A stretch of DNA of 64,000 nt from a phage. The stretch lies in assembly GCA_012813795.1 (NCBI GenBank), contig GCA_012813795.1_4087.1; one strand, given 5' to 3'. Of the stretch, positions 28,395 to 50,438 are shown in pieces. The notes beneath the pieces were generated by a model. That model was not told the origin of the DNA. It saw nothing but the letters and a program-made list of their open reading frames with translations, and made no database searches. Made by a program: the position numbers and the translations under genes. The stretch's first letter is position 1; every line of letters begins with the position of its first letter.

Positions 28395-33287
<4,893 letters not shown>

Positions 33288-34871: not shown

Positions 34872-34900
34872 ATTATAGCACATATAAATGTCTCTTCCCA
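34872..34900 (-). promoter_or_regulatory. promoter, family TGGGAA-N13-GTGC-TATAAT
   Basis: Minus strand: TGGGAA gagacatttatat GTGC TATAAT upstream of rnh. Confidence 0.45.
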
Positions 34901-35022
34901 TAATTGATAAATAATAGCATATAATCAAGGAAAGAAAATCACTTATTATGTGGGTGCTTTTAAATAATTGATAAATAATCTTAAGCAGGAGAGTCCTGCA
35001 CAAAATTGACAAGGAGATTTTT

Positions 35023-35622
35023 ATGAGTCTTAATTCTTTTAACCGTAACTATGGTATGTCTGCTAACTCCCGTGAGTACTGGGGTGGTGATAATGGTTTT
35101 GTAACCATCGTTGTTGATCTACCAGCAGATGTTGAAGTTGGTGCTACCAAAGTAACTTCCGATGGTTCTGAACTACAAGATGAAGCACTACAAACTGCGA
35201 TCACTAACGCACAATACAACCAATTCATGCTAACCCAACTACTACAACAACGTGCTGTTCTAGTTACTACTTCTGTACTAGCTCTTGACACTGACGTAGT
35301 AATCCCAGCGGATTTCAAAACTGTTGGCGGTAACGTAGTTGCTTTCGGTACTTCTGGTGCTGATGTTGCTGGCGGTGCTGGTTCTGTTGCACTAACCTTC
35401 ATCTGCGAACGTCAAGACGTTTTCGCTAAACAAGATGTTCGTCCAGGTGCTGCTTACTCTGTTCCAGTTGATCCAACTGTTGAACTAGCTAAAGTAATCG
35501 CTCAAGCTAAATTCTTCCGTACTAAATCTTTCGTAGATGTTACTACTGATGGTGTTGGTGATGCTGAAGCTGCTAAAGCTGTAGCTATTAAAGTTCGTGC
35601 TGCTCTACCAGTTCAACTATAA
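35023..35622 (+). CDS. abundant virion-type protein, paralog 1
   Basis: GGAG RBS; codon usage matches the major capsid gene (CTA Leu, CGT Arg, GGT, GCT); paralogous to the next gene. Confidence 0.7.
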   Translation: MSLNSFNRNYGMSANSREYWGGDNGFVTIVVDLPADVEVGATKVTSDGSELQDEALQTAITNAQYNQFMLTQLLQQRAVLVTTSVLALDTDVVIPADFKTVGGNVVAFGTSGADVAGGAGSVALTFICERQDVFAKQDVRPGAAYSVPVDPTVELAKVIAQAKFFRTKSFVDVTTDGVGDAEAAKAVAIKVRAALPVQL

Positions 35623-35637
35623 TATAAGGAGATTAAC

Positions 35638-36330
35638 ATGTCTAATATTAATACTTCTTTTGAACGAATTAACGGTTATTCTTTTGACAAAATTCTAGGT
35701 TATTTCTGTGGTACTAACGCCCTAGCTTCTATCGCTGTTAGTAAACTAGGTGACGTTAACGTGCGTGTTACTGGTGCAGTTGGTTCTTTTGCTGGTCTAC
35801 AACGTTTTCTAAACACTGATATTCCTGAAGTTATTACCGAATATCTAAATGACAAAGGTATCATCCGTATCGACGGTACTCCATTCGAAGTTGCCACTGT
35901 TGAAGCTGATTACAATGCTTCCTACGCTGCTCAAACTAACGTTAAACGTCTAGTTGATGTTGTTCAACAACGTGCAGTTGTTCTAAGTACTTCTGAAATC
36001 GGTGGTAATGATGCTTCCGCTCCACTAGCAGTCGAAGGTTTCACTAACGCAGTTGATGGTGTACTAAGTGTTGGTACTGTTGATATTGCAAGTGCTTCTG
36101 TTGTTACTTTCCTAGTTGAGCGTGCGAACGTATTTGACAAAGACCTCGTATCTTTCCAAGGCGTTCCAAGTACTGAAATCGAAGAAGGTCGCCTACTTAT
36201 CGACGATCTAACTGGTATCCCAATGCTTGCAAAAGATGGCGTTACTGAAGTCTTCCTAAAATCCCAAGCTGCTGATGCTGCTGGTGATTTCGGTATCAAG
36301 ATGTTCAAATCTATCCCAGCAATGGTTTAA
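35638..36330 (+). CDS. abundant virion-type protein, paralog 2
   Basis: Shares QQRAV.L.TS...D...V...F and ...FL.ER..VF.KD.V blocks with paralog 1; same codon bias. Confidence 0.7.
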   Translation: MSNINTSFERINGYSFDKILGYFCGTNALASIAVSKLGDVNVRVTGAVGSFAGLQRFLNTDIPEVITEYLNDKGIIRIDGTPFEVATVEADYNASYAAQTNVKRLVDVVQQRAVVLSTSEIGGNDASAPLAVEGFTNAVDGVLSVGTVDIASASVVTFLVERANVFDKDLVSFQGVPSTEIEEGRLLIDDLTGIPMLAKDGVTEVFLKSQAADAAGDFGIKMFKSIPAMV

Positions 36331-36340
36331 TAAATTAATA

Positions 36341-36378
36341 CAAGAAAAGGAGAACATATTGTTCTCCTTTTTTTTATT
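36341..36378. terminator. bidirectional rho-independent terminator
   Basis: AAAAGGAGAACA-tatt-TGTTCTCCTTTTTTTT: perfect hairpin flanked by an A-run and a T-run. Confidence 0.65.
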
Positions 36379-37123
36379 TGTATGATTTGAAACCTTCAGG
36401 TAAACCAGGTAGATTCTCTAACCCTGCGTTCGCACTCACTAGCTTTGCATCTTCGTTATCACTATAATCATCAGTAGCTAATTTGCGACCCAAATCACGA
36501 ACAAAGTTATCAATAATCTCTTCTTCATCCGTTCCTGGGTGACCTTCGGCTTTTAATTTCTTCCAAAAGTATTCATTGTAATCAAATACAAATTCTACTT
36601 CGTTTGTATCAGGATTCAAAATTACATCCAAATCAATCCAAGGCTCTTTACGTAATGTATAGATTTCCTTTGAATACTCTTGTTGTGTAATTTCATCATA
36701 CTTATACGCATACTCAATGGCTTTCAATCGTTTATCATCACCTTCAGGCATTAACTCGATTACTTCCATATCATACTCTTTTTGAGTAATAGTATCAGTA
36801 CTTAACTTTGCGTCAAGTACTTTTAAATCGTACTCTTCACGTGTAATCTTAGAGTACTTTAATTCGACAGCCGCCTGTTCAATTAGATATTTTAGTGTAT
36901 CTACAACACCATATTTCTTTTTAATATCCAATTGTGCAACATCAACTTCATATTCAGTAAGATATGTTAGTTCTGCAACTTTCAAATCTGCTTCATAATC
37001 GTCATTATAATAGTATGCTTTAGCAATCTCTTTCGCTTTACCAGAAAGTCCCCAATGGGCGGGGACCATCCAGAAAGGTAATAACCTTTTCTTAGCCATT
37101 TTTCTTTCCAAAGATTTCTTCAA
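36374..37123 (-). CDS. hypothetical protein (249 aa)
   Basis: ORF; start uncertain (ATG at 37123 or 37099). Confidence 0.55.
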   Translation of the reverse strand: MKKSLERKMAKKRLLPFWMVPAHWGLSGKAKEIAKAYYYNDDYEADLKVAELTYLTEYEVDVAQLDIKKKYGVVDTLKYLIEQAAVELKYSKITREEYDLKVLDAKLSTDTITQKEYDMEVIELMPEGDDKRLKAIEYAYKYDEITQQEYSKEIYTLRKEPWIDLDVILNPDTNEVEFVFDYNEYFWKKLKAEGHPGTDEEEIIDNFVRDLGRKLATDDYSDNEDAKLVSANAGLENLPGLPEGFKSYK

Positions 37124-46477: not shown

Positions 46478-47653
46478 TTACATGAAAGTAACGTTTTTGA
46501 TAGCGATTTTGCTGTAGTAGTCAGCAGCATTACCCAAACTTGAAGTTGAGTCAGTGAGTTGCACGTAGCCATAGCGTGTTAAAAATGTCGTGACCAATTC
46601 TCCAGTGTTAGGGTCCATTACAGTACCAGAAGCCATTAGTGGGATGTATGGGCAATAGAATACACCAGCATCAGTTTCTGCATTACCTTTATAACCAATT
46701 AGAATATCTTCTACATCTGAGGCGTAAGTATCGACAAATATACGCATGGTGCTGTTTAGAGTACCAACGAATTTAACGTTAGTTGGTGCTTCAAAAGTAC
46801 CTTCAGTAGTACGTGCAAAGCTGGAAGTAGTTGCAGACTGTAGAATGGTTAGAGCAGTTGGGGAAACAACAGCCCAGTTCGCAGCACCACGTTTGGTACG
46901 ACGAGCAACTTCGTTCGCTTGACGGTTGATTAGGGTAGCTAGAGCAGCGTGCTCATCACCTACGAAGGTTGCAACGCCAGTAACTTTAGATTGGTCATAA
47001 GTTACAGCAGCAGCACCAGGTAGTGCACGTAGACGGCTTAGTAGCTCTTGGTCGATTTCAACGGTAACTTCTTGAGCGATAGCAGCCATTAGTTCAGCTT
47101 CAACGTCGATACCATGTTGAGATTGTGCATCTTGTGCAGATTCAACAGTCCAACGTGCAGATAGACGACGAGATTTCGCTTCAACAGTTTCACGTAGGAT
47201 ACGGATGTTAACGCGACGACCCATAGTACCTTCTAGTTGGCTAGTAGGAGCAGCTTGTGGGTTACTGTTGTCAGAGTTTAGCTCACCAGTGTAAGATTTA
47301 GCAATCTTGAATGGAGATAGCATTTCTTCGCCAGCTACAACACCTGGTGCGTTGTCAGCGTATTGAACACGTAGAGTGTGGATTTGACCAACTGGGCCAG
47401 TCATTGGTTGAACACCGATGATTTCGTTAGCGATAACGGTTGGCATTACACGACGCATAATTGGTAGAATCACTTTGTTTAGAGTAGCGATGTTACCAGC
47501 AGAAGTTGCACCAGAGGTTGCAGATTCTTGTAGCATAACTTTGCGATGGTTATCAAGTACGGTTTCCATTACAGATTTACGAGTACCTTGAAGACCTTCA
47601 ACTAGTTTCTCTTTAACTGCTACCCATTTGGATTCATTTAGTAGTTGTGACAT
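46478..47653 (-). CDS. 23: major capsid protein (gp23-like)
   Basis: LNKVILPIMRRVMPTVIANEIIGVQPMTGPVGQIHTLRVQY matches the conserved gp23 block; strong codon bias. Confidence 0.85.
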   Translation of the reverse strand: MSQLLNESKWVAVKEKLVEGLQGTRKSVMETVLDNHRKVMLQESATSGATSAGNIATLNKVILPIMRRVMPTVIANEIIGVQPMTGPVGQIHTLRVQYADNAPGVVAGEEMLSPFKIAKSYTGELNSDNSNPQAAPTSQLEGTMGRRVNIRILRETVEAKSRRLSARWTVESAQDAQSQHGIDVEAELMAAIAQEVTVEIDQELLSRLRALPGAAAVTYDQSKVTGVATFVGDEHAALATLINRQANEVARRTKRGAANWAVVSPTALTILQSATTSSFARTTEGTFEAPTNVKFVGTLNSTMRIFVDTYASDVEDILIGYKGNAETDAGVFYCPYIPLMASGTVMDPNTGELVTTFLTRYGYVQLTDSTSSLGNAADYYSKIAIKNVTFM

Positions 47654-47745
47654 TATATTATCTCCTTAAAGATGTTATATTCGTTTTTCAGTATGTTATT
47701 ATTTATGGTACTGAAAAAATTGATTATTAAAATGCTTTAAAATGT

Positions 47746-49583: not shown

Positions 49584-50438
49584 TTAGAATTTTGGTTGTG
49601 ATTTTGGTAGTGGGGAACGAGACTTAGAAGAACCAGTGGTTACTTTCTTAACGTCTTTCATTACGCCTTTGCCGCTATCCATAACATTATTCATGTCGTC
49701 TGGTACAGTGTGAGATTCAGTGTCTACGCCATCAAATTTGTCATCAACTACTGGAGTTGAGCTTTTAGCGATTTTTACTGGAGCTACGCCTTGTACTGGA
49801 GATTTAGCTTGGGAAGCGACTGGGGATTTAGTATTTGCACCAGCTTTTTCTTTCTTATCAACATCAGCAACTGCTTTTAGTTTGAAAGACTCACCAACTT
49901 TTTCATCACCGAATTGAACATCAGCAAAATCATCACCGCCGTCTTCGGAACCAACTTCTAGATCAACTTCTTCTTCGCCACCTACTGGTTCTTCAGCGTC
50001 TAGGTCAACTTCACCTTCGCCGGAGATTTCATCAAACATTTGTTGTAGGCCACGGAAAGCATCTTGAATGGAAGCCCATTGGTCTTCGGAAGGGACTTCT
50101 TCACCTTCTGCACCAACTTCACCTTCAGAATCTTCTTCACCAGCTTGGAATTCGATATCATCTTCAGCACTCTTGTCTTCTTCACCAAGAGAATATTCGA
50201 TTTGACTATTAAGACCAGCATCTGGGGAAACGTCGAAGTCTTCTTCTAGTTTCTCTTCTTTGTCGTCTTCATCGCAGCATTCTTCGTCGTCCATGCTTTC
50301 TTCTAGTTCTTTGTTAATTTCTTGTGCTTGTTCAACAAAGTACTTACGCATTTTTTTATCAGCTACATCTTGCTCGCCGTTAGCAAAAGCTTCGATTGCT
50401 TCTTGTAGTAGTTTTAAATTAGCCATTATATCCTCCAA
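49584..50438 (-). CDS. highly acidic prohead core / internal-protein-like protein
   Basis: D/E-rich 284-aa protein inside the head module. Confidence 0.4.
   Translation of the reverse strand: MEDIMANLKLLQEAIEAFANGEQDVADKKMRKYFVEQAQEINKELEESMDDEECCDEDDKEEKLEEDFDVSPDAGLNSQIEYSLGEEDKSAEDDIEFQAGEEDSEGEVGAEGEEVPSEDQWASIQDAFRGLQQMFDEISGEGEVDLDAEEPVGGEEEVDLEVGSEDGGDDFADVQFGDEKVGESFKLKAVADVDKKEKAGANTKSPVASQAKSPVQGVAPVKIAKSSTPVVDDKFDGVDTESHTVPDDMNNVMDSGKGVMKDVKKVTTGSSKSRSPLPKSQPKF

Follow-up and report, generated by a model that had tools for sequence, protein, structure and literature searches.

An ancient pair of paralogous, abundant virion proteins in RaK2-like jumbo phages and its possible place in the outer capsid layer

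The locus studied here raises the question of what two adjacent, strongly codon-biased genes, oriented against their surroundings, contribute to the phage that carries them. The window, by which we mean the whole 64,000-nucleotide stretch of phage DNA that was analysed (GenBank assembly GCA_012813795.1), belongs to Asteriusvirus. Over the 2-kb region compared it shares 99.6% DNA identity with Escherichia phage A4 (ON286972, 355.5 kb), and the phage is a RaK2-like jumbo coliphage of about 350 kb; the same region finds 41 further jumbo-phage records (coliphage, Salmonella and Klebsiella) at 60-90% identity. A preliminary description of the window had singled out two plus-strand ORFs inside a minus-strand array. 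Both are present in the ORF map (Table 1), and from about 5.9 to 54.7 kb of the window this map shows no further credible genes on the plus strand. Only 15 nt separate the two genes, which are therefore probably co-transcribed, and an AAGGAGA site lies 5-6 nt before each ATG.

The A4 record annotates both counterparts, A4_26 and A4_25, as 'structural protein'. They are flanked there by a divergently transcribed RNase H-like 5'-3' exonuclease on one side and by a convergent 'structural protein', followed by GroES, on the other, and the phAPEC6 and G17 records show the same layout. The convergent neighbour in the window (36374-37123, minus strand) encodes 249 amino acids that match phrog_13349 'virion structural protein', and has RaK2 ORF105 and the CBB neighbour FDG95_gp269 as orthologs. 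It shares its terminator with the pair and uses ordinary codons (CTA/Leu 0.19); its phAPEC6 counterpart, gp212c, is absent from the published phAPEC6 virion proteome. Further along the minus-strand array, the large terminase gene (30970-32608) is broken into ORFs of 112 and 445 amino acids by a 1-nt insertion near 32345-32350, exactly within the Walker A motif. The window and the A4 GenBank record both read CAGATGCGGAAAAAC at this point, unlike G17, and dropping the inserted C restores the motif; this could be a sequencing error common to the window and A4, or a genuine frameshift in an essential gene. Beside it, a 234-aa ORF (32583-33287, minus strand) is annotated 'large terminase subunit' in A4, and its counterpart in the corresponding place of a distant metagenomic relative (L008 6900-7634) matches Pfam Terminase_6N. 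The lineage may thus carry a second, short terminase-N-like gene.

Table 1. Positions of the gene pair and of its signals in the window.
Feature	Position	Strand	Remarks
Distal late-promoter-like motif, ATAAATAATAGCATA	34907..34921	+	T4-late-like ATAAATA core
Proximal late-promoter-like motif, ATAAATAAT	34971..34979	+	inside repeated AATTGATAAATAAT
5'-UTR stem-loop, GCAGGA-GAG-TCCTGC	34985..34999	+	starts 6 nt after the proximal motif
Ribosome binding site of gene 1, AAGGAGA	35011..35017	+	read from sequence; core identical to that of the capsid gene
Gene 1	35023..35622	+	short paralog; 199 aa, 20.9 kDa, pI 4.5; orthologs A4_26, RaK2 ORF107w, CBB_271, phAPEC6 gp210
Ribosome binding site of gene 2, AAGGAGA	35626..35632	+	read from sequence
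Gene 2	35638..36330	+	long paralog with helical insertion; 230 aa, 24.4 kDa, pI 4.4; orthologs A4_25, RaK2 ORF106w, CBB_270, phAPEC6 gp211
Intrinsic-terminator hairpin	36342..36374	both	bordered by an A-run and a T-run; overlap with the convergent gene's stop codon

The two proteins are clearly paralogs, as the preliminary description had proposed. BLASTP aligns them at 34% identity over 86 amino acids (E 5e-5), and the two conserved blocks that had been pointed out, QQRAV..TS and TF(I/L)xER..VF.K, both fall inside this alignment. Profile-profile comparison with hhalign, using profiles built from 38- and 41-member alignments, extends the relationship to 175 columns (98.8% probability, E 5.2e-17) and places an insertion of about 29 amino acids in the gene 2 protein relative to the gene 1 protein. 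Ten positions are invariant in both families (gene 1 numbering: R8, G11, G22, N24, A63, N66, R77, S84, E129 and R130). Both proteins match phrog_9326 'virion structural protein' over nearly their full length (gene 1, E 9.6e-82, residues 1-199 of 199; gene 2, E 1e-77, residues 5-230 of 230), and the pair does not differ substantially from the known members of that group, of which it is a further one. Pfam passes no family for the pair, its sole match being KdgT at E 0.18, and NCBIfam returns no match. The 'hemagluttinin repeat-containing protein' label carried by phAPEC6 gp211 (MK817115, L003 3925-4614) receives no support from either Pfam or NCBIfam, and appears to be an artefact of annotation.

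The family is narrow in its range and rigid in its setting. An exhaustive HMM search across 1.84 billion representatives recovered only 41 clusters, and tblastn found the family in 74 phage genomes, including every phage of the group that was searched; gene 2 orthologs are 57-100% identical, and about 38% identical in one Vibrio phage. Nearly all of the records listed have genomes of about 310-385 kb, and the few shorter ones look incomplete. Their hosts are Escherichia, Klebsiella, Salmonella, Erwinia, Yersinia, Serratia, Pectobacterium, Cronobacter, Xanthomonas and, for the one phage mentioned, Vibrio. Wherever the contig is long enough to judge, and as far as the most distant metagenomic members, the gene order is kept: a leftward exonuclease, the short and then the long paralog (both rightward), a leftward gene and a Zn-ribbon gene. 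The plus-strand pair thus holds a fixed position between the RNase H-like exonuclease and the convergent virion gene that is followed by GroES. All distant homologs down to E ~1e-11 occupy this exonuclease/pair/Zn-ribbon context on jumbo-phage contigs, and among these members none lies beside a capsid or sheath gene of a smaller phage. The orthologous pairs RaK2 ORF107w/106w, GAP32 gp265/gp264, CBB_271/270, phAPEC6 gp210/gp211, and 121Q gp617 with its neighbour share with the window the two-gene order, the flanking genes, the promoter motifs, the 5' hairpin and the terminator. Both paralogs stand side by side in every relative examined, the most distant contigs included. Since the distant members keep both copies in one arrangement, the duplication predates the lineage, and the joint retention of the two paralogs suggests that their roles are non-redundant and probably joint.

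Published virion analyses place the orthologs in the particle, in agreement with the virion role (decoration, neck or tail component) that the preliminary description had considered: they are present in the virions of RaK2, CBB and phAPEC6, and absence from the virion proteome, which that description had named as grounds for refutation, does not apply to them. In RaK2, ORF107w and ORF106w were called 'two distantly related proteins' whose sole homologs were those of GAP32 (Simoliunas et al. 2013, PMC3622015). They formed abundant SDS-PAGE bands that were discussed together with the capsid and sheath proteins, and they ran at their predicted mass, and are therefore not cleaved (PMC3622015). Sequence coverage in the CBB virion was 91.3% for CBB_270, the highest of 55 proteins, and 56.4% for CBB_271 (PMC5259590), and in the phAPEC6 virion 69.9% for gp211 and 69.8% for gp210, against 74.9% for the capsid protein and 68.0% for the sheath (PMC7247149); such coverage is saturated, as are the published peptide counts, from which an emPAI-style estimate does not discriminate, so these figures cannot separate 150 from 1620 copies. 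We conclude that the window genes very probably encode two ancient paralogous acidic proteins that rank with the most abundant virion components and that, in the RaK2 orthologs, are unprocessed. Because the published proteomes already list the orthologs at 56-91% coverage, this core finding is not new; an account of the abundant, paralogous pair in virions was published as early as 2013.

Non-structural proteins do occur in these proteomes, and it could be argued that the pair consists of very highly expressed late proteins that merely accompany the particles through purification, like SSB, thymidylate synthase and topoisomerase; SSB even shares the codon bias described below. We regard this as highly improbable. 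The high coverage was obtained in three laboratories, with CsCl-purified particles in the case of RaK2 and CBB, the RaK2 bands stood out strongly enough for the authors to treat them alongside capsid and sheath proteins, and the co-purifying enzymes reach only 7-17% coverage in phAPEC6 (PMC7247149).

The codon usage of the two genes speaks to how strongly they are expressed. As had been noticed in the window, they use the codon set of the capsid gene: CTA makes up 0.86 of the leucine codons in gene 1 and 0.82 in gene 2, against mostly 0.0-0.35 in the remaining window ORFs, and CGT makes up 1.00 and 0.75 of the arginine codons. The gene used for comparison (46478-47653, minus strand) is the major head protein (phrog_138, E 8e-98). 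In a principal component analysis of relative synonymous codon usage (188 ORFs, 196 kb; PC1 24.5% of the variance), gene 1 ranks first, followed by the capsid protein, SSB, gene 2 and the tail sheath, with a tube-like gene at rank 14, although codon bias is noisy in short genes. The pair thus ranks level with the capsid protein, which is present in 1620 copies, and exceeds the sheath, present in about 150. As the replication gene SSB has the same bias, the bias marks high expression and not lateness as such. The earlier proposal of very high late expression is supported by the codon ranks of 1 and 4 and, as to timing, by the late-promoter-like ATAAATA motifs.

The codons preferred in the biased genes are CGT, CTA, GGT, CCA, TCT, ACT and GTT. 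CTA is a rare leucine codon in E. coli, yet it is preferred in the highly expressed phage genes. We considered the phage tRNAs as a cause of the CTA and CGT preference and rejected them: the A4 tRNA cluster (L007 41019-44088) encodes Ser-UGA, Gly-UCC, Ser-GCU, Met, Asn and Thr-UGU, the codons that these serve, such as GGA and ACA, are ones that strongly biased genes avoid, and the approximately 245 kb of A4 that were scanned contain no tRNA-Leu(UAG).

The control elements of the operon are typical of strongly expressed late phage genes. Upstream of gene 1 lie two ATAAATA motifs, a form that has been proposed as the T4-like late promoter of the group, acting with a gp55-like sigma factor (CBB paper, PMC5259590); there is no convincing plus-strand match to a sigma-70 promoter upstream of the pair. 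The extended form of the distal motif, TAAATAATANCATA, has exact matches at three places in the 64 kb, each time in sense orientation just upstream of a gene, namely gene 1, the capsid gene (47692-47705, minus strand) and the virion gene 49584-50438 (minus strand). A site with one mismatch precedes the virion gene 29636-30937, and at one mismatch or fewer there are five sites against 0.61 expected, a count equalled in 0 of 100 shuffles. The distal ATAAATA lies about 117 nt before the ATG, a position kept in G17, RaK2 and CBB. Two exact copies of AATTGATAAATAAT stand upstream of gene 1, the second of which holds the proximal motif; this motif is found 52-60 nt before the ATG in the window, in G17, RaK2 and CBB and in one metagenomic relative, and GATAAATAA is kept in 8 of 10 relatives.

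The 5'-UTR hairpin that follows is found at the same place in all 10 relatives examined, and its stem is maintained by compensatory double changes in three of five pairs (GCAGG/CCTGC, GTAAG/CTTAC and GCCAG/CTGGC, for example). Pairing holds in 84% of cells, compared with 26-38% when the partner is slid, and the covariation score was matched by none of 500 shuffles. We infer that this hairpin forms the 5' end of the late transcript, or stands close to it, and has a stabilising effect on the mRNA; the transcript itself would start some 6-8 nt after ATAAATAA. At the other end, the bidirectional terminator that had been read from the window is flagged on both strands by a consensus scan. Its folding energy is -18.8 kcal/mol for the plus strand and -15.5 for the minus strand, where the U-tract is weaker (UUUUCUUGUAUU), and its stability (z about -5) was reached in 0 of 200 shuffles. 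Equivalent hairpins follow the pair in G17, whose record annotates the terminator, in phAPEC6, RaK2 and CBB, and in two metagenomic relatives. Their stems differ yet stay complementary (GGAGAAC/GTTCTCC, GGAGAGC/GCTCTCC, GGAGAATC/GATTCTCC, GGGAGTC/GACTCCC and GGCGC/GCGCC).

The divergent intergenic region that holds the late promoters of the pair also holds a signal of another kind. An extended -10-like motif, TGTGCTATAAT, occurs at 34872-34882 and 29544-29554, both on the minus strand, and at eight further sites with one mismatch, giving 10 matches at one mismatch or fewer against 2.7 expected. It precedes the RNase H-like exonuclease, recurs in the region ahead of SSB, and is likely to represent an early/middle promoter class. 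The exonuclease copy, which is the one in the divergent region, is kept in G17 and phAPEC6.

Where in the particle might such a pair belong? The one place suggested so far is the tail: Simoliunas et al. (2013) suggested that RaK2 gp106w or gp107w may be the tail tube protein, or the two together its subunits, on the basis of size (21-24 kDa), abundance and a beta-rich prediction (PMC3622015). T4 gp19-type tube proteins are indeed in a similar class of size and abundance, and the gene 2 model contains a long beta-hairpin at residues 130-161. The setting of the genes argues otherwise: in A4 the sheath gene A4_547, at 142-145 kb, directly precedes three PHROG tail-tube genes in canonical position, the pair lies at 227-228.5 kb, and the proposal is weakened by the presence of those three genes. 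These three candidates (A4_549-551) rest on PHROG labels and position: neither PDB sequence and profile searches nor hhalign against T4 gp19 tied them significantly to gp19 or to any PDB tube, and coverage of PHROG 'tube' candidates in the phAPEC6 proteome is low, at 9-30% (PMC7247149). The tube reading is therefore weakened and keeps a small probability. The pair itself compares with T4 gp19 at a probability of 0.15% in hhalign, and its models lack a beta-sandwich or beta-barrel of the tube type. Taken together, a role in the tube is very unlikely.

A location on the surface of the tail, or at the anchors of fibres, is another option. phAPEC6, 121Q and CBB carry unusual hairs on both tail and head, and a tail decoration protein has been seen at two levels; the pair might then account for the extra densities at the collar and distal tail, or for the bases from which the 'hairy' fibres of sheath and capsid arise. 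For features confined to a few annuli, or to one position per hexamer (about 270 sites), expression at the level of the capsid protein would be unnecessary, and every phage of the group that was searched carries the family. We consider this quite unlikely.

The interior of the head offers a third location, in which the pair builds, or helps to build, an inner body. A radiation-sensitive body of 91 x 18 nm, with DNA spooled around it, has been seen in the heads of 121Q and phAPEC6; to build it, small proteins would be required in hundreds of copies. The inner-body proteins of phiKZ form paralogous families, and the genes of the pair have packaging and replication genes as neighbours (terminase, RNase H, SSB). 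Against this, internal proteins of the T4 and phiKZ type are processed by a prohead protease, while the RaK2 orthologs are uncleaved at their predicted mass and the alignment shows no cleavage-type motif common to the N-termini of both paralogs. Moreover, the strong acidity of the proteins (pI 4.4-4.5) is not suggestive of contact with DNA, and the phAPEC6 authors preferred RCC1-like proteins. The inner body is for these reasons an unlikely destination.

Structure prediction gives the two proteins a common and unfamiliar shape. The AF2 monomer models (pLDDT 80.4 for gene 1, 82.9 for gene 2) have a beta-alpha-beta-beta-alpha-beta core with a 26-residue helix, forming a ferredoxin-like alpha+beta sandwich, to which the gene 2 model adds a helical hairpin. 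Foldseek against the PDB gave nothing at E < 0.2, a sequence search of the PDB gave no match, BFVD returned only family members and uncharacterised phage proteins, and the predicted fold matches no known tube, decoration or cement fold. Both models begin with a low-confidence N-terminal arm of about 20-30 residues. In gene 1 this arm is the most conserved part of the protein, with a column conservation of 0.79-0.91 over residues 1-30 and a pLDDT of 43-48 over residues 1-20, and residues 11-30 of gene 2 are likewise conserved yet of low pLDDT. In these models, an arm that is conserved and poorly predicted points to an intermolecular interface that forms only in the assembly.

Cryo-EM studies of two relatives describe a layer that such proteins might form. 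In 121Q, a probable independent decoration protein was seen across the two-fold axes (PMC5646251). In phAPEC6, an elongated outer protein bridges the local two-folds in a copy number equal to that of the capsid protein; the mass spectrometry data gave no assignment, and its authors allowed for the ridge being an additional capsid-protein domain. We also considered phiKp24 as a possible solved relative and set it aside: its capsid is T=27 and built from a single large capsid protein, gp372, and its cryo-EM study yielded nothing usable for the family of the pair.

Internal proteins of T4-type heads are normally cut by the prohead protease, and the lack of cleavage in the RaK2 orthologs thus argues for addition from outside a head of this type. 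Of the roles considered, capsid decoration best fits the codon bias at the level of the capsid protein, the use of the same promoter form as the capsid gene, the abundance, the absence of cleavage and the obligatory retention of two paralogs. Our main reading is that the pair may form the outer decoration lattice of the T=28 capsid, to which we give a probability of roughly 45%. Several observations weigh against it. phAPEC6 gp347 (75%), gp306c (66%) and gp315c (69%) are equally possible lattice proteins (PMC7247149), the predicted fold is unlike that of known decoration and cement proteins, and SSB, which is not structural, ranks equally high in codon bias.

T4 Soc and lambda gpD serve us here as a working analogy only. 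The traits shared in this analogy are small size, very high abundance, absence of processing, transcription from a separate late unit away from the head-gene cluster and, as we propose for the pair, binding to a gp23-type lattice between capsomers. The differences are plain. The pair has no sequence or fold similarity to Soc or gpD, nor any such relation to Hoc, Dec or Psu; its members are two to three times larger than Soc and form a set of two paralogs in place of one protein; and Soc and gpD are known cement proteins, while the capsid location of the pair is proposed.

The region is very probably a self-contained late operon, composed in order of two ATAAATA motifs, the 5'-UTR hairpin, two strongly translated genes and a terminator common to the convergent gene. 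The hairpin would stabilise the late mRNA, and host-optimised codons would allow output at the level of the capsid protein. If the lattice reading is right, the two products would co-assemble, probably 1:1, as an outer second layer on T=28 capsids such as those of 121Q and phAPEC6, binding the expanded shell from outside as a functional analogue of T4 Soc, with the N-terminal arm docking onto the capsid protein or the partner paralog. More tentatively still, we picture a heterodimeric cement lattice with a fold new among decoration proteins, in which about one heterodimer is present per capsid protein or per pair of them and the N-terminal arm threads the gp23-type lattice.

In summary, the pair is a lineage-wide component, at the level of the capsid protein, of some of the largest coliphage virions. 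What is new here are the two ATAAATA motifs, the covarying 5'-UTR hairpin, the invariant synteny, the fold model and the conserved, low-confidence N-terminal arm; the remainder is ordinary annotation of a known family. The sole published guess, the tail tube, now looks unlikely. Two cryo-EM studies left the outer capsid layer without a gene, and the pair provides prime candidates for it together with a model to fit. If our reading is true, the outer layer seen in 121Q and phAPEC6 would gain its genes, and the capsid cements a new structural class. The pair would also be a possible high-copy display scaffold for phage engineering.
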